Below are positions 2,220 to 29,119 of a stretch of 64,000 nt of DNA, piece by piece (the stretch's first letter is position 1; the number at the start of each line of letters is the position of its first letter). The stretch is from Escherichia coli. GTDB taxonomy: Bacteria > Pseudomonadota > Gammaproteobacteria > Enterobacterales > Enterobacteriaceae. The position numbers and the translations under genes are program-made. The stretch lies in NCBI RefSeq assembly GCF_003018255.1, contig NZ_CP027440.1. One strand, 5' to 3'. The notes under the pieces were generated by a model, which was not told the DNA's origin, ran no database searches, and saw only the letters and a program-made list of their open reading frames with translations.

Positions 2220-3236
2220 TTAATCGGGATATCCCTGTGGATGGCGTGACTGCCAGTGCCAGGTGTCCTGCGCCATTTCATCGAGTGTGCGCGTTACGCG
2301 CCAGTTCAGTTCACGGTCGGCTTTGCTGGCGTCCGCCCAGTAGGCCGGAAGGTCGCCCTCGCGACGCGGTGCAAAATGATAATTAACCGGTTTGCCGCAG
2401 GCTTTGCTGAAGGCATTAACCACGTCCAGCACGCTGCTGCCTACGCCAGCGCCGAGGTTATAGATGTGTACGCCTGGCTTGTTCGCCAGTTTTTCCATCG
2501 CCACGACGTGACCGTCCGCCAGATCCATTACGTGGATGTAATCGCGTACGCCAGTACCGTCTTCGGTCGGATAATCGTTACCAAAAATCGCCAGCGAGTC
2601 GCGACGGCCTACAGCAACCTGGGCGATGTATGGCATCAGGTTATTCGGAATGCCTTGCGGATCTTCGCCCATATCGCCCGACGGATGCGCGCCAACCGGG
2701 TTGAAGTAGCGCAGCAGGGCAATGCTCCAGTCCGGCTGGGCTTTTTGCAGATCGGTGAGGATCTGTTCCACCATCAGTTTGCTTTTGCCGTAAGGGCTTT
2801 GCGGTGTGCCGGTCGGGAAGCTTTCAACGTATGGAATTTTGGGCTGATCGCCATAGACGGTGGCGGAGGAGCTAAAAATAAAGTTTTTGACGTTCGCGGC
2901 GCGCATGGCGCTAATCAGGCGCAGGGTACCGTTGACATTGTTGTCGTAATATTCAAGCGGTTTTTGTACCGATTCGCCAACGGCTTTCAGCCCGGCGAAG
3001 TGGATCACAGTGTCGATAGCGTGATCGTGCAGGATCTCGGTCATCAACGCTTCGTTACGGATATCGCCTTCAACAAACGTTGGATGTTTGCCGCCTAAAC
3101 GCTCGATAACAGGCAGTACGCTGCGCTTACTGTTACAGAGGTTATCAAGAATGATGACATCATGACCGTTTTGCAGTAATTGCACACAGGTATGACTTCC
3201 AATGTAACCGCTACCACCGGTAACCAGAACTCTCAT
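2220..3236 (-). CDS. galE: UDP-glucose 4-epimerase
   Basis: ORF trimmed to internal Met giving MRVLVTGGSGYIGSH (Rossmann GxxGxxG), 338 aa; ATG at 3236 is preceded by the gal promoter sequence. Confidence 0.95.
   Translation of the reverse strand: MRVLVTGGSGYIGSHTCVQLLQNGHDVIILDNLCNSKRSVLPVIERLGGKHPTFVEGDIRNEALMTEILHDHAIDTVIHFAGLKAVGESVQKPLEYYDNNVNGTLRLISAMRAANVKNFIFSSSATVYGDQPKIPYVESFPTGTPQSPYGKSKLMVEQILTDLQKAQPDWSIALLRYFNPVGAHPSGDMGEDPQGIPNNLMPYIAQVAVGRRDSLAIFGNDYPTEDGTGVRDYIHVMDLADGHVVAMEKLANKPGVHIYNLGAGVGSSVLDVVNAFSKACGKPVNYHFAPRREGDLPAYWADASKADRELNWRVTRTLDEMAQDTWHWQSRHPQGYPD
3202..3217. promoter_or_regulatory. GalR/GalS internal operator OI inside galE
   Basis: Plus strand atgtaaccgctaccac is the reverse complement of GTGGTAGCGGTTACAT, located inside the 5' end of galE. 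Confidence 0.7.
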
Positions 3237-5036: not shown

Positions 5037-5825
5037 TTAGCACAGCGTGGCGATAATCACGCTGTCGGCATTAAAGTAGGCCGTGACATTCTGTCCTTGC
5101 TGAAGAGAAGTCGCTTCATTTACCGGCACTGTGGCGCACAGTGTTTGCCCGTCGGGTAGCGCCATTAATACTTCGCACTGCTCTGCGCCGCGCTCAATAT
5201 GGCTAATAATACCCGGTAATTGGTTGTCGGCGTTTTGTGCGACCGCTTCGTCCTGAGTAATGCCTACCCACGGCGCTTTTAGTAATATCAACACTTCTTT
5301 GCCTTCATCCAGCCCCAGACGCGCGCCGCTTTGTGCGGTAATTGCGACTTTCAGGCGTGTTTTTCCGTCAGCCAGTAAGACATCAACATGCTGTTGAACG
5401 TCATCATGATTGCGGGCGGTGATGGTGCCAAACCATTGGTTACGGGCGCTGGTTTGCAGTGAAAAACGTGAGATCGCGGCCAGCAGGCTGTTCAGCGGCA
5501 GGGCGTCATCGTCACTTAACACATCGAAGGCTTTTTGCTGGATTTGCGCCAGTAAGTCATAGAGCTGAATCAGTCGCTGACCATAGCGGGTCAGTACTGC
5601 GCCGCCTCCACCTTTACCGCCTGTTGCGCGCTCAACCAGAATATGCTCACTTAACTGATTCATCTCGTTAATGGCATCCCATGCGCTTTTATAGCTGATA
5701 CCGGCATCTTTCGCTCCCTGGCTAATGGAACCGGAAAGCGCAATGTGTTTTAGTAGCGAAATGCGGCGCGGGTCGGCGAATAATTTTTGTTGGAGCTTAA
5801 GGGTGAGAAGGATTTCGGCCTGCAT
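5037..5825 (-). CDS. modE: molybdate-responsive transcriptional regulator ModE
   Basis: 262-aa ORF MQAEILLTLKLQQKLFADPRRISLLKHIALSGSISQGAKDAGISYKSAWDAINEMN with N-terminal HTH and C-terminal Mop repeats. Confidence 0.95.
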   Translation of the reverse strand: MQAEILLTLKLQQKLFADPRRISLLKHIALSGSISQGAKDAGISYKSAWDAINEMNQLSEHILVERATGGKGGGGAVLTRYGQRLIQLYDLLAQIQQKAFDVLSDDDALPLNSLLAAISRFSLQTSARNQWFGTITARNHDDVQQHVDVLLADGKTRLKVAITAQSGARLGLDEGKEVLILLKAPWVGITQDEAVAQNADNQLPGIISHIERGAEQCEVLMALPDGQTLCATVPVNEATSLQQGQNVTAYFNADSVIIATLC

Positions 5826-5935
5826 AACAATATCCTGGAAAAAGTCTTATTGTGACGGAAAACGAACGCCACGCAAAGCTGACCGCACAAAAGGGGAGTG
5901 CTTTTCTTTGCTTAGCGGTTAGAATAGTCTCATGA

Positions 5936-6103
<168 letters not shown>

Positions 6104-6111
6104 ATCCCTGA

Positions 6112-6140
6112 ATGCCCGCTTAGTCGGGCATTTCTTTTTC
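6112..6140 (+). terminator. rho-independent terminator after acrZ
   Basis: Hairpin atgcccg-cttagt-cgggcat followed by ttctttttc. Confidence 0.7.
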
Positions 6141-6225
6141 TCAACCTCCTGCTTTTCCTGCCGATATTTTTTCTCATCTACCTCACAAAGGTTAGCAATA
6201 ACTGCTGGGAAAATTCTGAGTTAGC

Positions 6226-6249
6226 CGTTATATTGTCGCCTACATAACG
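6226..6249. promoter_or_regulatory. ModE operator at the modA promoter
   Basis: cgttaTATATtgtcgccTACATaacg fits the TATAT-N7-TAYAT ModE motif about 20 bp upstream of the modA start. Confidence 0.7.
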
Positions 6250-6268
6250 TTAGATTAAGGGGTTACCA

Positions 6269-7042
6269 ATGGCTCGTAAATGGTTGAACTTGTTTGCCGG
6301 GGCGGCACTCTCTTTCGCTGTTGCTGGCAATGCACTGGCAGATGAAGGGAAAATCACGGTGTTCGCCGCCGCATCACTGACTAACGCAATGCAGGACATT
6401 GCTACGCAGTATAAAAAAGAGAAAGGCGTGGATGTGGTTTCTTCTTTCGCTTCGTCATCTACTTTGGCCCGTCAGATTGAAGCGGGTGCGCCTGCGGATC
6501 TGTTTATTTCTGCCGATCAGAAATGGATGGATTATGCGGTTGATAAAAAAGCGATCGATACGGCTTCGCGCCAGACACTGCTCGGCAATAGCCTGGTCGT
6601 TGTAGCACCGAAAGCCAGCGAGCAGAAAGATTTCACCATCGACAGCAAAACCAACTGGACTTCGCTGCTGAATGGCGGTCGTCTGGCGGTTGGCGATCCG
6701 GAACATGTTCCCGCTGGCATTTATGCAAAAGAAGCACTGCAAAAACTGGGCGCATGGGATACGCTCTCCCCGAAACTGGCTCCGGCGGAAGATGTTCGTG
6801 GCGCGCTGGCGTTGGTCGAACGCAATGAAGCGCCGCTGGGTATTGTTTACGGTTCTGACGCAGTTGCCAGCAAAGGGGTAAAAGTGGTTGCCACCTTCCC
6901 GGAAGATTCGCATAAAAAAGTGGAATATCCGGTTGCTGTTGTGGAAGGGCATAACAATGCGACGGTGAAAGCATTTTATGATTATCTGAAGGGACCGCAG
7001 GCTGCGGAAATCTTTAAACGTTACGGATTTACAACCAAGTAA
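6269..7042 (+). CDS. modA: molybdate ABC transporter periplasmic binding protein
   Basis: 257-aa ORF with signal peptide MARKWLNLFAGAALSFAVAGNALA; stop overlaps the modB start (ATGA). Confidence 0.96.
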   Translation: MARKWLNLFAGAALSFAVAGNALADEGKITVFAAASLTNAMQDIATQYKKEKGVDVVSSFASSSTLARQIEAGAPADLFISADQKWMDYAVDKKAIDTASRQTLLGNSLVVVAPKASEQKDFTIDSKTNWTSLLNGGRLAVGDPEHVPAGIYAKEALQKLGAWDTLSPKLAPAEDVRGALALVERNEAPLGIVYGSDAVASKGVKVVATFPEDSHKKVEYPVAVVEGHNNATVKAFYDYLKGPQAAEIFKRYGFTTK

Positions 7043-7731
7043 TGATACTGACCGATCCAGAATGGCAGGCGGTTTTACTAAGCCTGAAAGTTTCTTCCCT
7101 GGCTGTGCTGTTTAGCCTGCCGTTTGGGATCTTTTTTGCCTGGTTACTGGTGCGTTGCACGTTTCCGGGCAAAGCTCTGCTCGACAGCGTACTGCATCTA
7201 CCGCTGGTGTTACCGCCCGTGGTCGTCGGTTACTTATTATTAGTTTCGATGGGACGGCGCGGATTTATCGGTGAACGTCTGTATGACTGGTTTGGCATTA
7301 CCTTCGCCTTTAGCTGGCGCGGCGCGGTTCTCGCTGCCGCCGTCATGTCGTTTCCGCTGATGGTGCGGGCAATTCGTCTGGCGCTGGAAGGGGTTGATGT
7401 CAAACTGGAACAGGCCGCAAGAACACTGGGTGCCGGGCGCTGGCGCGTTTTCTTTACTATCACGTTACCGCTGACCTTACCGGGCATTATTGTTGGTACG
7501 GTACTGGCTTTTGCTCGTTCTCTCGGTGAGTTTGGTGCAACCATCACCTTTGTGTCGAACATTCCTGGTGAAACGCGAACCATTCCTTCTGCCATGTATA
7601 CCCTGATCCAGACCCCCGGCGGGGAAAGTGGAGCGGCGAGACTGTGCATTATTTCTATTGCACTGGCGATGATCTCCCTGTTGATTTCAGAATGGCTGGC
7701 CAGAATCAGCCGTGAACGGGCGGGGCGCTAA
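7042..7731 (+). CDS. modB: molybdate ABC transporter permease
   Basis: 229-aa hydrophobic ORF with the ABC permease EAA-like loop; between modA and modC. Confidence 0.95.
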
Positions 7732-7733
7732 TC

Positions 7734-8792
7734 ATGCTGGAACTGAATTTTTCCCAGACGTTGGGCAACCATTGCCTGACCATTAATGAAACGCTGCCCG
7801 CCAATGGCATCACTGCTATCTTTGGCGTCTCCGGTGCCGGAAAAACTTCGCTGATTAACGCCATCAGTGGACTGACGCGCCCGCAAAAAGGGCGGATTGT
7901 CCTCAATGGGCGGGTACTAAATGATGCCGAAAAAGGTATCTGCCTGACGCCGGAAAAGCGTCGCGTTGGCTATGTTTTTCAGGATGCGCGGCTGTTCCCG
8001 CATTACAAAGTGCGTGGCAATCTGCGCTACGGCATGGCGAAAAGTATGGTCGATCAGTTCGATAAGCTGGTGGCGCTTTTAGGCATTGAACCGTTGCTTG
8101 ACCGTTTACCAGGCAGCCTGTCCGGAGGTGAAAAACAGCGCGTGGCGATTGGTCGGGCTTTGCTGACAGCACCGGAATTGCTGTTGCTGGATGAACCGCT
8201 GGCGTCACTGGATATTCCGCGTAAACGCGAACTGTTGCCTTATCTGCAACGGCTGACACGGGAAATCAACATTCCGATGTTGTATGTCAGCCATTCGCTG
8301 GATGAGATCCTCCATCTGGCAGACAGAGTGATGGTACTGGAAAACGGTCAGGTGAAAGCCTTTGGCGCGCTGGAGGAAGTGTGGGGCAGTAGCGTGATGA
8401 ATCCGTGGCTGCCGAAAGAGCAACAAAGTAGCATTCTGAAAGTGACGGTGCTTGAGCATCATCCGCATTACGCGATGACCGCGCTGGCGCTGGGCGATCA
8501 GCATTTGTGGGTCAATAAGCTGGACGAACCGCTGCAAGCTGCGCTACGCATCCGCATTCAGGCTTCCGATGTCTCGCTGGTTTTACAACCGCCGCAGCAA
8601 ACCAGCATTCGTAACGTATTGCGGGCAAAAGTGGTTAATAGTTATGACGACAACGGCCAGGTGGAAGTGGAGCTGGAAGTCGGCGGTAAAACGCTGTGGG
8701 CGCGTATCAGCCCGTGGGCCAGGGATGAACTGGCGATCAAACCTGGCCTGTGGCTGTATGCGCAAATTAAAAGTGTGTCGATAACCGCCTGA
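7734..8792 (+). CDS. modC: molybdate ABC transporter ATP-binding protein
   Basis: 352-aa ORF with Walker [18 protein letters not shown] signature and a C-terminal Mop-like domain. Confidence 0.95.
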
Positions 8793-13066: not shown

Positions 13067-14500
13067 ATGAATAAAAAATCGTTATGGAAGCTAATTCTGA
13101 TATTAGCGATCCCATGTATTATTGGCTTTATGCCAGCTCCGGCAGGATTAAGCGAACTGGCGTGGGTGCTTTTTGGTATTTACCTGGCGGCCATTGTGGG
13201 GCTGGTTATCAAGCCTTTCCCGGAACCTGTCGTACTGTTAATTGCCGTCGCCGCATCGATGGTAGTGGTGGGTAACTTATCAGGTGGGGAATTTAAAACC
13301 ACCGCCGTATTAAGCGGTTACTCTTCCGGTACCACCTGGCTGGTGTTTTCTGCGTTTACTTTAAGCGCCGCGTTTGTAACCACAGGCTTAGGTAAACGTA
13401 TTGCCTATCTGCTGATTGGTAAAATTGGTAGCACTACCCTGGGTCTGGGTTACGTTACGGTATTTCTCGATCTGGTACTGGCTCCGGCAACACCGTCTAA
13501 CACCGCGCGTGCGGGCGGCATCGTGTTACCGATCATCAACAGCGTGGCAGTGGCTTTGGGATCAGAACCGGAAAAAAGTCCGCGTCGTGTTGGACATTAC
13601 CTGATGATGTCCATTTACATGGTCACTAAAACCACCAGCTATATGTTCTTTACCGCAATGGCGGGGAACATTCTGGCGCTGAAAATGATCAACGACATTC
13701 TGCACCTGCAAATTAGCTGGGGTGGATGGGCGCTGGCCGCTGGATTGCCGGGTATCATTATGCTGCTGGTCACCCCGCTGGTGATTTACACCATGTATCC
13801 GCCAGAAATTAAGAAGGTGGATAACAAAACCATCGCCAAAGCGGGCCTTGCCGAACTGGGACCGATGAAAATCCGCGAAAAAATGCTGCTCGGTGTCTTC
13901 GTGCTGGCGCTGCTGGGCTGGATTTTCAGTAAGTCACTGGGGGTTGATGAATCCACCGTGGCAATCGTTGTTATGGCGACTATGCTGCTGCTGGGTATCG
14001 TTACCTGGGAAGACGTGGTTAAAAATAAAGGCGGCTGGAATACCTTAATCTGGTACGGCGGTATTATCGGCTTAAGCTCCTTATTATCGAAAGTTAAATT
14101 CTTTGAATGGTTAGCTGAAGTCTTTAAAAATAACCTGGCATTTGATGGTCACGGTAACGTTGCTTTCTTCGTTATTATTTTCCTCAGCATCATCGTGCGT
14201 TATTTCTTCGCTTCCGGTAGTGCCTATATCGTTGCTATGTTACCTGTATTTGCCATGCTGGCGAACGTCTCCGGCGCACCGTTAATGTTAACCGCGCTGG
14301 CACTGTTGTTCTCTAACTCCTATGGCGGCATGGTTACTCACTATGGCGGCGCGGCAGGTCCGGTCATCTTTGGCGTGGGTTACAACGATATTAAATCCTG
14401 GTGGTTGGTCGGTGCGGTACTGACGATATTAACCTTCCTGGTGCATATCACCCTCGGCGTGTGGTGGTGGAATATGCTGATCGGCTGGAACATGCTGTAA
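13067..14500 (+). CDS. ybhI: DASS-family (divalent anion:Na+ symporter-like) transporter
   Basis: 477-aa polytopic membrane ORF MNKKSLWKLILILAIPCIIGFMPAP; follows ybhH. Confidence 0.88.
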   Translation: MNKKSLWKLILILAIPCIIGFMPAPAGLSELAWVLFGIYLAAIVGLVIKPFPEPVVLLIAVAASMVVVGNLSGGEFKTTAVLSGYSSGTTWLVFSAFTLSAAFVTTGLGKRIAYLLIGKIGSTTLGLGYVTVFLDLVLAPATPSNTARAGGIVLPIINSVAVALGSEPEKSPRRVGHYLMMSIYMVTKTTSYMFFTAMAGNILALKMINDILHLQISWGGWALAAGLPGIIMLLVTPLVIYTMYPPEIKKVDNKTIAKAGLAELGPMKIREKMLLGVFVLALLGWIFSKSLGVDESTVAIVVMATMLLLGIVTWEDVVKNKGGWNTLIWYGGIIGLSSLLSKVKFFEWLAEVFKNNLAFDGHGNVAFFVIIFLSIIVRYFFASGSAYIVAMLPVFAMLANVSGAPLMLTALALLFSNSYGGMVTHYGGAAGPVIFGVGYNDIKSWWLVGAVLTILTFLVHITLGVWWWNMLIGWNML

Positions 14501-14502
14501 AT

Positions 14503-14628
14503 ATACTCGTCATACTTCAAGTTGCATGTGCTGCGTCTGCGTTCGCTCACCCCAGTCACTTACTTATGTAAGCTCCTGGGGATTCACTCGCTTGTCGCCT
14601 TCCTGCAACTCGAATTATTTAGAGTATA
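14503..14628. repeat. ERIC/IRU element (enterobacterial repetitive intergenic consensus), complete 126-bp copy
   Basis: Contains cgctcaccccagtcacttactt (reverse complement of the ERIC2 primer) and atgtaagctcctggggattcac (ERIC1R), bounded by tatactcgtcatac and agagtata. Confidence 0.9.
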
Positions 14629-14658
14629 TCCATTTATTATCTTTCTGCGCACTTCACG

Positions 14659-16943
14659 GTGCGCAGATATCTGGAGCATTTGATGATCAAGTTATCTGAA
14701 AAAGGCGTGTTTCTCGCCAGCAATAACGAAATAATTGCCGAAGAACATTTCACCGGCGAAATAAAAAAAGAAGAAGCAAAAAAAGGCACTATTGCCTGGT
14801 CTATTCTCTCTTCTCATAATACGTCCGGAAATATGGATAAACTTAAAATTAAGTTTGATTCATTAGCCTCTCACGATATTACCTTTGTTGGTATTGTACA
14901 GACCGCTAAAGCGTCCAGTATGGAACGTTTCCCGCTGCCGTATGTGCTGACCAACTGCCATAACTCACTCTGTGCTGTGGGCGGCACCATTAACGGTGAT
15001 GACCATGTTTTTGGTTTATCGGCGGCCCAGCGTTATGGCGGTATTTTTGTGCCACCGCATATTGCGGTCATCCATCAATATATGCGTGAAATGATGGCGG
15101 CGGCGGCAAAATGATCCTCGGGTCAGACAGCCATACCCGTTACGGTGCGTTAGGGACAATGGCGGTTGGCGAGGGCGGCGGCGAGTTGGTAAAACAGCTG
15201 CTTAATGACACCTGGGATATCGACTATCCGGGCGTGGTTGCGGTGCATCTGACCGGAAAACCTGCGCCGTATGTGGGGCCGCAGGATGTGGCGCTGGCTA
15301 TCATCGGTGCCGTGTTCAAAAACGGTTACGTCAAAAACAAAGTGATGGAGTTCGTAGGTCCCGGTGTTGCAGCGCTCTCTACCGATTTCCGTAACAGCGT
15401 TGACGTGATGACCACTGAAACGACCTGTTTAAGTTCTGTCTGGCAAACCGATGAAGAAGTCCATAACTGGCTGGCGCTGCACGGTCGCGGCCAGGATTAC
15501 TGCCAACTTAACCCTCAACCAATGGCGTACTACGATGGCTGCATCAGCGTTGATTTAAGCGCCATCAAACCAATGATTGCGCTGCCATTCCACCCGAGCA
15601 ACGTGTATGAAATCGACACGCTGAACCAGAACCTGACCGACATTCTGCGTGAGATTGAAATTGAGTCCGAACGCGTGGCGCACGGTAAAGCCAAACTCTC
15701 GCTGCTGGATAAAGTGGAAAATGGTCGCCTGAAAGTGCAGCAGGGGATTATCGCGGGCTGTTCTGGCGGTAACTACGAAAACGTCATCGCGGCGGCGAAT
15801 GCGCTGCGCGGTCAATCCTGCGGCAACGATACCTTCTCATTGGCGGTTTACCCGTCATCACAGCCGGTGTTTATGGATCTCGCCAAAAAAGGTGTGGTAG
15901 CAGATTTGATTGGCGCAGGCGCAATCATCAGAACCGCGTTCTGCGGCCCATGCTTTGGTGCGGGCGATACGCCAATCAACAACGGTTTGAGTATTCGCCA
16001 CACCACGCGTAACTTCCCGAACCGCGAAGGCTCTAAGCCAGCTAATGGGCAGATGTCAGCGGTGGCGTTGATGGACGCTCGTTCTATCGCTGCAACTGCG
16101 GCAAACGGTGGCTATTTAACCTCTGCCAGCGAACTCGATTGCTGGGACAACGTGCCGGAGTACGCCTTCGATGTAACGCCGTATAAAAATCGCGTCTATC
16201 AAGGCTTTGTGAAAGGGGCGACCCAGCAACCGCTGATCTACGGACCGAACATCAAAGACTGGCCGGAATTGGGCGCGCTGACTGACAATATCGTCCTCAA
16301 AGTGTGCTCGAAGATCCTCGACGAAGTCACCACCACCGACGAACTGATTCCTTCCGGTGAAACCTCTTCTTATCGTTCAAATCCGATTGGTCTGGCGGAG
16401 TTTACCCTGTCACGCCGCGATCCCGGTTATGTTGGCAGAAGTAAAGCGACTGCTGAGCTGGAAAATCAGCGTCTGGCGGGGAATGTCAGCGAGCTGACAG
16501 AGGTGTTTGCGCGCATTAAGCAGATTGCTGGTCAGGAGCATATTGATCCGCTGCAAACTGAAATTGGCAGCATGGTCTATGCGGTGAAACCAGGCGATGG
16601 TTCTGCGCGTGAGCAGGCGGCGAGCTGCCAGCGTGTGATTGGCGGTCTGGCGAATATTGCCGAGGAATACGCGACTAAACGCTACCGTTCTAACGTCATC
16701 AACTGGGGGATGTTACCGCTGCAAATGGCGGAAGCACCAACGTTTGAAGTGGGGGATTACATTTACATCCCTGGCATTAAAGCGGCGCTGGATAATCCTG
16801 GAACGACGTTTAAAGGTTATGTGATCCATGAAGATGCACCGGTAACGGAGATTACGCTCTATATGGAAAGTCTGACTGCTGAAGAGCGCGAGATTATCAA
16901 GGCGGGTAGTTTGATTAACTTCAATAAAAACCGTCAGATGTAA
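14659..16943 (+). pseudogene. ybhJ: aconitase-family putative hydratase YbhJ, apparently interrupted by a frameshift
   Basis: Two ORF pieces in different frames: 14659..15114 (151 aa, ending [10 protein letters not shown]) and 15111..16943 (610 aa, [15 protein letters not shown] with aconitase DSHT motif). The downstream frame is open only from 15090, so the break lies in the gcggcggcggc tract at 15090..15112. Confidence 0.75.
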
Positions 16944-27994: not shown

Positions 27995-28125
27995 GGCTTA
28001 ACCACTAAACACTCTAGCCTCTGCACCTGGGTCAACTGATACGGTGCTTTGGCCGTGACAATGCTCGTAAAGATTGCCACCAGGGCGAAGGAAGAAATGA
28101 CTTCGCCTCCCGTATCTGGAAAGGT
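27995..28125 (+). ncRNA. molybdenum cofactor (Moco) riboswitch / moaA leader
   Basis: Structured GC-rich leader directly 5' of moaA (ctctgcacctgggtcaactgatacggtgctttggccgtgacaatgctcgtaaagattgccaccagggcgaaggaag...); the Moco RNA motif is established at this position in E. coli. Boundaries approximate. Confidence 0.55.
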
Positions 28126-28129
28126 GTAC

Positions 28130-29119
28130 ATGGCTTCACAACTGACTGATGCATTTGCGCGTAAGTTTTACTACTTGCGCCTGTCGATTACTGATGTGTG
28201 TAACTTTCGTTGCACCTACTGCCTGCCGGATGGCTACAAACCGAGCGGCGTCACCAATAAAGGCTTTCTTACCGTCGATGAAATTCGCCGGGTTACGCGC
28301 GCCTTTGCCAGTCTGGGCACCGAAAAAGTGCGCCTGACAGGCGGTGAGCCGTCTTTACGCCGCGACTTTACCGATATCATCGCCGCTGTGCGGGAAAACG
28401 ACGCTATCCGCCAGATTGCGGTCACCACCAATGGTTACCGTCTGGAACGCGATGTGGCGAACTGGCGCGATGCGGGACTTACTGGCATCAACGTCAGCGT
28501 TGATAGCCTTGACGCTCGCCAGTTTCATGCCATTACCGGGCAGGATAAATTCAACCAGGTCATGGCAGGGATCGATGCTGCATTTGAGGCCGGTTTTGAG
28601 AAGGTCAAAGTCAATACCGTGCTGATGCGTGATGTTAATCATCATCAGCTCGACACCTTTCTGAACTGGATCCAGCATCGCCCTATCCAGCTGCGTTTCA
28701 TCGAATTGATGGAAACGGGTGAGGGCAGCGAGCTCTTCCGTAAGCATCACATCTCTGGTCAGGTTCTGCGTGACGAGCTACTGCGTCGCGGCTGGATCCA
28801 CCAATTACGTCAACGCAGCGACGGTCCCGCGCAAGTCTTTTGTCATCCGGATTACGCCGGAGAGATTGGCCTTATCATGCCGTATGAAAAAGACTTCTGC
28901 GCCACTTGCAACCGCCTGCGCGTTTCCTCCATTGGTAAACTCCATCTCTGCCTGTTTGGTGAAGGCGGCGTTAACCTGCGCGATCTGCTGGAAGACGATA
29001 CCCAGCAACAGGCGCTGGAAGCGCGTATTTCAGCGGCGCTGCGGGAGAAGAAACAGACCCATTTCCTGCATCAAAACAACACCGGTATTACGCAAAACTT
29101 ATCGTACATTGGCGGCTAA
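28130..29119 (+). CDS. moaA: GTP 3',8-cyclase (radical SAM) MoaA
   Basis: ORF trimmed to [31 protein letters not shown] (CxxxCxxC), 329 aa. Confidence 0.95.

Follow-up and report, generated by a model that had tools for sequence, protein, structure and literature searches.

What does a long, repeated palindrome do when it lies between two neighboring bacterial genes that are most likely read as one message? The question is raised by an ERIC element found between ybhI and ybhJ in a stretch of 64,000 nucleotides of Escherichia coli DNA, the whole of which is referred to here as the window. ERIC elements have been known since 1990–91, and the family (ERIC, IRU, or RU-1 of the Enterobacteriaceae) reportedly goes back to Sharples and Lloyd in 1990 and to Hulton, Higgins, and Sharp in 1991; the copies present in E. 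coli genomes are said to have been catalogued by Wilson and Sharp in 2006.

Gene names at the locus were taken from the RefSeq annotation of near-identical E. coli loci, in which ybhD lies upstream and is divergent, ybhH, ybhI, and ybhJ are co-directional, and ybhC converges on them from downstream. According to the open reading frame list and this annotation, ybhI occupies positions 13067–14500 of the + strand, encodes an anion permease of 477 amino acids, and ends in a TAA stop codon at 14498–14500. The ERIC element begins one base past this stop and ends 54 bases short of the start of ybhJ, a hydratase gene on the same strand (14683–16943). The translation start region of ybhJ (14673–14685, + strand) consists of a GGAG ribosome-binding site at 14673–14676 and an ATG at 14683–14685, as read from the sequence and from the RefSeq start in K-12 TG1. 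The open reading frame list and alignment with K-12, DETEC-S792, and GF4-3 reveal that ybhJ is frameshifted in the window, where a 1-bp deletion near 15099 leads to a stop codon at 15112–15114 and the rest of the gene is open from 15111 to 16943. The deletion is private to the window, with 0 of 5375 genomes carrying the same one. A preliminary description of this DNA had placed the element inside an otherwise compact putative operon, and such an arrangement is supported both by the shared direction of ybhH, ybhI, and ybhJ and by the adjacency of ybhI and ybhJ, which is kept in three other genera (Citrobacter, Edwardsiella, and Intestinirhabdus), where the spacer can be as small as 24 nt.

The identity of the element is clear from its core. 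Both ERIC-PCR primers, which were derived from the conserved ERIC core and are used worldwide, find an exact match: ERIC2 (AAGTAAGTGACTGGGGTGAGCG) at 14544–14565 on the − strand and ERIC1R (ATGTAAGCTCCTGGGGATTCAC) at 14566–14587 on the + strand. The two matches abut at 14544–14587, and each is the only one in the 64 kb within 3 mismatches, with a chance expectation of 0. The + strand of the element, which is also the mRNA sense of ybhI and ybhJ, reads as the reverse complement of the ERIC2-bearing strand. To set the limits of the element, we aligned it with 37 ERIC copies from independent genomic sites, in which the family ends are TATACTC (or TATACCC) and GAGTATA (or GGGTATA). By these common ends and the exact primer matches, positions 14502–14628 (+ strand) are a canonical 127-bp ERIC element (TATACTC...GAGTATA). 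The preliminary description was therefore right to call a complete ERIC element between ybhI and ybhJ, as the primer matches and inverted repeats bear out, but the extent that it gave (126 bp, 14503–14628) is one base short at the left, which makes no material difference.

The internal anatomy is equally regular. The terminal inverted repeats, at 14501–14526 and 14604–14629, are 26 nt long and 81% complementary. The left one (repeat I1, fold helices 1–2, with compensatory changes in the family) forms the 5′ arm of a hairpin in the mRNA sense, and the right one, assigned from the repeat and the fold, forms the 3′ arm and includes the AU-rich stretch GAAUUAUUUAGAG; within it, A113, A117, T118, and T120 are invariant across 38 ERIC copies. 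Between the arms lies the central conserved core hairpin (CCCCAGTCACTTAC / GTAAGCTCCTGGGG; 14550–14581), built from the two halves of inverted repeat I3 (14550–14563 and 14568–14581), and its helices 4–5 are 96–100% paired over the 37 distinct copies. Near-identical copies are dispersed in E. coli, where a megablast search gave a median of 6 and a maximum of 11 ERIC-like matches per genome, and ~45 distinct ERIC flanking contexts were present in a metagenome sample. All five sequence-level features that define the ERIC/IRU family are thus present, namely the core, the length with inverted repeats, the TA duplication, the dispersed copies, and the stem-loop. Compared with the family as reviewed in PMC2229807, the copy is alike in its length, terminal inverted repeats, core, flanking TA, intergenic place on the transcribed strand, multiplicity per genome, and hairpin, and there is no substantive difference. 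It is an ordinary full-length member of a long-known repeat and a non-coding relic of a mobile element.

Alleles that lack the element allow the anatomy of the insertion to be described. The empty allele reads TAAATATCC (in a longer extract, CTGTAAATATCC), and the filled allele reads CTGTAAA-TA-[TACTCG...GAGTA]-TA-TCC. The net gain is 125 bp, made up of a 123-bp core and one duplicated TA, which takes the ybhI-ybhJ spacer from 57 to 182 bp. Comparison of filled and empty alleles places the left copy of the TA target dinucleotide at 14502–14503 and the right copy at 14627–14628. Duplication of TA on insertion is a reported signature of ERIC elements (PMC2229807 Table 1; PMC3184786). The data fit, without uniquely proving, such a duplication here, as the junction is ambiguous within the ATAT at 14501–14504.

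Three empty alleles were identified, in E. coli GF4-3, E. coli SCPM-O-B-8794, and Escherichia sp. MOD1-EC7003. GF4-3 is an E. coli from guinea fowl with a complete genome and has the 57-bp spacer; its empty allele sits in a patch of at most ~155 bp that carries three linked variants in common with SCPM-O-B-8794, and its flanks are K-12-like. A fresh, precise excision in GF4-3 was rejected on account of these three shared variants, which suggest instead that a short patch was recombined in or that an old allele persisted. We also considered whether the MOD1-EC7003 allele (CTGTAATTATTTAAAAATATCC) might be a scar left by the right end of an ERIC element (AATTATTTA); this was rejected since Edwardsiella hoshinae, which has no ERIC element there, carries CTGTAATTATTT past the stop codon, and the AT-rich string of MOD1-EC7003 is more likely to be ancestral spacer. 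The lineages with empty alleles retain the same gene order, so the element is not required.

The preliminary description had proposed that presence or absence of the element be surveyed across E. coli, and this survey showed almost no variation. The element was found with both flanks in 5321 of 5426 complete E. coli genomes, using a 431-bp query for which 80% coverage is out of reach without the element. The flanks of the site were found in 5346 of the 5426, and about 80 genomes, such as BLR(DE3), are without this part of the locus. A 58-nt probe across the empty junction, designed so that filled alleles miss the E-value cut-off, detected a single empty site among the 5426 genomes, that of GF4-3. 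The element is essentially fixed in E. coli, K-12 included. A wider scan of YbhI relatives, with one genome per species, returned 50 loci; in these, E69 (a second E. coli lineage), E. albertii, and E. whittamii likewise have an ERIC element after ybhI, and none follows ybhI in any of the Citrobacter, Edwardsiella, and Intestinirhabdus loci, where ybhJ is still the next gene.

The copy is also strongly conserved in sequence. Between the window and E. albertii, the ERIC element has 0 differences in 129 positions and the 53-bp spacer has 3, and third codon positions differ by 25% over the last 900 bp of ybhI and by 31% over the first 420 bp of ybhJ; changes specific to E. albertii reach to within 29 bp of the element on each side. 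Within E. coli, the element has 6 segregating sites and a nucleotide diversity (π) of 0.010–0.012 in 21 haplotypes, compared with 0.027 and 0.086 at the flanking third positions. High conservation of ERIC copies was already part of the family's original description, and the E. coli-type copies at eight sites are 97.7–100% identical to one another. The identity across species could come from purifying selection, from gene conversion between copies, or from short-patch exchange between species. A stronger proposal is that the element is more than a passive relic and is nearly unchanged across Escherichia species either because it sets the ybhI:ybhJ ratio as an RNA processing or stability element or because it is homogenized by short-patch gene conversion between loci or species; we consider this proposal doubtful.

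The preliminary description had suggested that the element would form a large stem-loop in mRNA, and as a prediction this is borne out. In the mRNA sense (+ strand), the predicted fold of the element is a single long hairpin with interruptions (−44.3 kcal/mol, z = −6.4), which 0 of 200 shuffles equaled. The − strand folds more stably (−54.0 kcal/mol, z = −8.6), since what is a G-U pair on one strand is an A-C mismatch on the other. When the structure is scored over 37 distinct ERIC copies, 90% of the cells are standard pairs, compared with 24–40% when the partners are slid, and changes on both sides of a pair (compensatory changes) are present at 17 of 40 pairs against a shuffled mean of 5.8, a number reached in 0 of 500 shuffles. 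The pattern of substitutions shows that the palindromic symmetry of the family is under constraint. Rather than from selection on RNA, such covariation could equally come from recognition of both ends by a transposase or from templated repair of a quasi-palindrome, and the latter route is illustrated by the E. whittamii copy, in which three adjacent changes (CTC to TGA) make the imperfect central hairpin perfect.

A second, smaller hairpin lies in the native spacer between the element and ybhJ. Inverted repeat I5 (UCUGCGCACU-UCAC-GGUGCGCAGA; 14644–14667, + strand) forms a perfect 10-bp stem (−17 kcal/mol, z = −7.2) and leaves 5 nt before the ybhJ Shine-Dalgarno sequence. This hairpin is separate from the ERIC element and is found in empty-site alleles as well, and when the element was folded together with its flanks, the two hairpins formed independently. 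Several Citrobacter species and Intestinirhabdus have a hairpin of other sequence at the equivalent position.

For the ERIC hairpin to act in RNA, transcription would have to cross it. A consensus scan found neither a σ70-like promoter nor a terminator-like site on the + strand between 14500 and 14683, and in a relaxed promoter scan of 14480–14690, the best score was 8 of 12, which is the commonest best score of random 210-nt windows of the same sequence. An independent ybhJ promoter downstream of the element, which the preliminary description had named as the finding that would overturn its reading, was therefore not seen in the sequence by either scan. The hairpin itself departs from the form of an intrinsic terminator in that the base of its stem is AU-rich and the stem is broken by internal loops, although a T-rich tract does follow. 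An informative comparison comes from the cusC-cusF junction, where an identical ERIC element (127 of 127 positions) lies in the same orientation, 5 nt past the cusC stop codon and 25 nt before the cusF start. Since cusCFBA is induced as one operon (PMC12589874), an ERIC element in such a position and orientation is compatible with read-through. Published maps bear on the ybhI-ybhJ junction to a limited degree. The literature searched, including the PMC9068703 supplements and SMRT-Cappable-seq, yielded no transcription start site, 3′ end, or operon data for the junction, and the 3′-end maps of Adams 2021 show only an antisense 3′ end inside ybhJ and none at the junction. A full-text literature search likewise yielded nothing on the operon structure of ybhI, ybhJ, and ybhH. 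In the single functional study that deals with these genes, "ybhHI" is named as a cluster to which ybhJ is added; the study reports induction of ybhH in a ybhD mutant, with ybhJ unmentioned there, and control of ybhH and ybhI by Nac, with ybhJ treated as a neighbor. Deletion of ybhD and nitrogen limitation, under which Nac is active, are reported to induce ybhH and ybhI. Given the lack of a promoter or terminator above chance in the scans and the identical cusC-cusF copy, co-transcription of ybhI and ybhJ, with the ERIC element as an intercistronic RNA hairpin, is most likely the state of this locus.

What such a hairpin might do is suggested by work on Yersinia. In the portions of three reviews (PMC2229807, PMC10969869, PMC3184786) that relay De Gregorio 2005, Yersinia ERIC elements are described as co-transcribed with their neighbors and as affecting the stability of the flanking transcripts in an orientation-dependent manner. 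In one orientation, by these accounts, upstream transcripts accumulate less than downstream ones, and the cause proposed there is that ribosomes keep the hairpin from folding, so that an RNase E site within one of the inverted repeats becomes accessible. The ybhI-ybhJ copy resembles the Yersinia elements in its TA insertion, its proximity to a stop codon, its co-directional flanking genes, a hairpin base that would be covered by the ribosome, and an AU-rich stretch in one arm. Here pairing at the base of the hairpin starts at 14501, directly after the last base of the ybhI TAA (14500), and a match to the classical RAUUW motif, GAAUUAUUUAG, is found in the arm that is 3′ in the mRNA sense. The two cases differ in that E. 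coli ERIC elements are few and apparently immobile and those of Yersinia are many.

Taken together, the ybhI-ybhJ element belongs to the ERIC/IRU family of miniature inverted repeats and is a fixed, now apparently immobile copy inserted at a TA, and we think it reasonably probable that it is carried as a co-transcribed intercistronic hairpin. Under this reading, insertion at the TA directly 3′ of the ybhI stop codon would have enlarged the 57-bp spacer of the ancestral Escherichia allele by 125 bp, and the element would be carried in a ybhH-ybhI-ybhJ (or ybhI-ybhJ) message, where its RNA would form a long, imperfect hairpin between the cistrons that would not stop transcription. By analogy with Yersinia, one may further speculate that a ribosome finishing translation of ybhI would open the lowest pairs of the hairpin, given a 5′ arm that starts only 1 nt past the stop codon. 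Melting could in turn expose the AU-rich 3′ arm (GAAUUAUUUAGAGUAUAU) and the AU-rich spacer that follows (about 14612–14643), and processing by a ribonuclease there might uncouple the levels of ybhI and ybhJ mRNA. There is perhaps an even chance that the element measurably changes how stable the ybhI and ybhJ mRNA segments are relative to each other; a negligible effect, with the element as a tolerated passenger, is about as likely as an mRNA-uncoupling one.

The orientation of ERIC elements near stop codons, which bears on the A and B orientation classes of the Yersinia work, was also surveyed, using 120 ERIC-bearing metagenome loci that fell into 57 flank clusters and ~45 distinct near-full-length sites, with naive open reading frames of at least 100 amino acids. 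Among stop-proximal elements (≤18 nt), 4 were in the ybhI-ybhJ orientation and 12 in the opposite one (one-sided binomial p ~0.04, from crude open reading frame calls). This count is in conflict with the location of the RAUUW-like motif and is suggestive only.

The co-transcribed hairpin has to be weighed against several other accounts of the same element. The most serious of them, to which we give a substantial but somewhat smaller probability, holds that the element is a neutral passenger, an old transposition relic fixed by drift or hitch-hiking and without function, whether or not it is transcribed. Empty alleles occur alongside an intact ybhH-ybhI-ybhJ order in three lineages, the element is polymorphic within E. 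coli (the 6 segregating sites in 21 haplotypes noted above), the downstream gene ybhJ is itself broken in the window, and the ybh genes are poorly characterized and little expressed in available data, all of which fit a passenger. Harder to accommodate are a diversity 2–7 times below that of the flanking third codon positions, the absence of any difference from E. albertii over 129 positions next to third positions that differ by 25–31%, and the maintenance of the hairpin by compensatory changes throughout the family. Conservation of this kind can also be read at the level of DNA, with the element serving as a substrate for ectopic gene conversion or short-patch recombination, as a cruciform, or as a protein-binding site. 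Paralogous copies at the 8 E. coli-type sites are 97.7–100% identical, the orthologous E. albertii copy is identical even though the flanks have diverged to within 29 bp of it, and the GF4-3 patch (≤~155 bp in a K-12-like background) implies that short-patch exchange does occur at the site. The identity patterns are explained as well by purifying selection or retention of the consensus, however, ERIC elements have no known DNA motif (PMC2229807 Table 1), and nothing ties an action on DNA to the expression of ybhI or ybhJ; we regard a DNA-level role as unlikely.

If the element acted on transcription instead, its hairpin and the U-rich spacer (CCAUUUAUUAUCUUUCU) would terminate ybhHI, and ybhJ would have a promoter in or after the element. 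The T-rich tract past the long hairpin, which begins 2 nt beyond the stem and has 5 T among its 8 bases, and the separate handling of ybhHI and ybhJ in the literature would suit such an insulator. It is quite unlikely all the same, given that the scan called no terminator-like site for a stem that is interrupted and AU-rich at its base, that no promoter rose above chance in 14480–14690, that the mere 54 nt between the element and the ybhJ start are filled by the small hairpin and the Shine-Dalgarno sequence, and that the identical copy lies in the same orientation between cusC and cusF within the cusCFBA operon. A product encoded by the element itself, either a small RNA or a small protein, is very improbable. 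Elsewhere, ERIC-type sequences have entered catalogues of small RNAs, as is shown by a full-length match of the element (model positions 1–129, − strand) to Rfam RF02818, V_AS5, the Vibrio antisense RNA AS5, with 46.9 bits and E = 2.6e-9 against a gathering score of 96, and a partial match to isrH with 17.5 against 45; both scores are far under threshold. The V_AS5 match runs opposite to the orientation of the ybhI-ybhJ mRNA, and RF02818 most likely models a Vibrio repeat of the ERIC type. At gathering thresholds, Rfam contains no ERIC family, and its sole match in the window is a Moco riboswitch elsewhere. Mechanical open reading frames of 53–57 amino acids do run through the element, and ERIC elements are known to carry open reading frames (PMC2229807), but those seen here show no sign of ribosome binding and arise as a side effect of the repeat, and no promoter was found on either side.

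A co-transcribed ERIC hairpin would have parallels in other repeat families. The REP or BIME sequences (e.g. malE-malF) are likewise repeated intercistronic palindromes whose hairpins can alter the stability of mRNA segments; they differ in consisting of GC-rich units of ~35 bp without terminal inverted repeats or TA duplication, in being mobilized by RAYT proteins, and in having an unrelated sequence. The Correia or NEMIS elements of Neisseria are closer in build, being miniature inverted-repeat elements that duplicate TA, are co-transcribed, and form a hairpin that is a ribonuclease target, but they belong to another sequence family and host, are cut by RNase III, and in some cases carry promoters or IHF sites, which are unseen here.

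The element between ybhI and ybhJ is, then, a correct identification of an already known and ubiquitous element, and, within E. coli, the site is of no use as a presence/absence marker. As far as the literature searched shows, an effect of ERIC elements on the stability of intercistronic mRNA has been tested only in Yersinia. At ybhI-ybhJ, the natural empty alleles define the exact anatomy of the insertion, and a natural control for such an effect is already at hand in GF4-3, or in a K-12 strain engineered with the GF4-3 spacer.

Almost every sequenced E. coli genome carries the filled ybhI-ybhJ spacer, in which the 127-bp ERIC element lies at 14502-14628. Among 5426 complete E. coli genomes, an empty site was found in one alone, that of strain GF4-3 (3090-3225 in its own locus). 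The empty site in this strain forms part of a patch of at most ~155 bp that matches the allele of SCPM-O-B-8794, a divergent E. coli lineage that lacks the element, and the sequence to either side of the patch is K-12-like. GF4-3 also has a G-to-A change immediately upstream of the ybhJ ATG.

A perfect 10-bp hairpin at 14644-14667, separated by 5 nt from the ybhJ Shine-Dalgarno sequence that follows it, occurs in filled and empty alleles alike; within Escherichia, variation in this structure is confined to the loop. A hairpin of different sequence occupies the equivalent position in Citrobacter youngae, FP75, gillenii and Res13 and in Intestinirhabdus; none is present there in C. sedlakii, where the ybhI-ybhJ spacer measures 24 nt. 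The window hairpin may be an RNA structure native to the intercistronic gap, or alternatively a protein-binding site with dyad symmetry. In Intestinirhabdus alba, the spacer (5434-5640 in the comparison locus, ~200 bp) is occupied by GC-rich REP-like palindromes, and the gap between ybhI and ybhJ has therefore taken differing small palindromic elements across genera. Downstream of the ybhI homologue of Klebsiella indica, a 22-nt fragment with a 95% match to the left end of ERIC (5454-5475 in that locus) lies 20 nt past the stop codon, and a 10-mer of the ERIC core follows ~190 bp beyond it (5663-5672); together, these fragments may represent a disrupted, independent insertion of ERIC.

A copy with 127-nt identity to the ybhI-ybhJ element was found in E. 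coli BLR(DE3) between cusC and cusF (3002-3128 in its locus), within the cusCFBA operon, in the same orientation and with similar proximity to a stop codon. Neither flank of the ybhI-ybhJ site was matched in the BLR(DE3) genome, suggesting that this part of the locus is absent from the strain. The minus strand of 14506-14629 matched the Vibrio antisense RNA AS5 family (Rfam RF02818 V_AS5) over its full length but below threshold, at 46.9 bits (E = 2.6e-9), and isrH in part, which suggests that both families contain ERIC-type repeat sequence. The sole Rfam match in the window at the gathering threshold is a molybdenum cofactor riboswitch (RF01055) at 27998-28142 on the plus strand (103.4 bits). 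For ybhJ itself, published data list a cis-antisense small RNA candidate of ~66 nt, ECS012, inside the gene on the minus strand (PMC3175480) and a 3' end antisense to it (supplement of PMC7815308).

The ybhJ gene of the window is interrupted, in the stretch 15098-15114, by a 1-bp deletion near 15099 within the run ATGGC-GGCGGCGGC, which reads ATGGCAGGC in K-12 and ATGGCGGGC in DETEC-S792, the genome closest to the window across the ybhI-ybhJ region. The resulting frame shift leads to a stop codon at 15112-15114; an open frame spanning 15111-16943 covers the rest of ybhJ. The deletion was seen in none of 5375 E. coli genomes, the best match in each being 98.8%, equivalent to a single gap. Either the mutation is private to this genome and pseudogenising, or the base was lost through a sequencing error. 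In DETEC-S792 (5878-8751 in its locus), a Mu-like prophage cuts ybhJ short, with an annotated helix-turn-helix protein and a Mu transposase directly past the break; this insertion is absent from the window.

Across species, the element of E. albertii (5435-5563 in its locus) is identical to window 14501-14629 at 129 of 129 positions, with species-specific changes within 29 bp of ERIC on either side and a difference of 25-31% at flanking third codon positions. This identity may reflect selection, gene conversion or short-patch transfer. The E. whittamii element (5435-5563 in its locus) carries three adjacent substitutions, CTC to TGA, at the equivalent of window 14573-14575, and these convert the imperfect central hairpin of ERIC into a perfect palindrome. 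Substitutions of this kind are characteristic of templated quasi-palindrome correction, a process able to mimic compensatory evolution.
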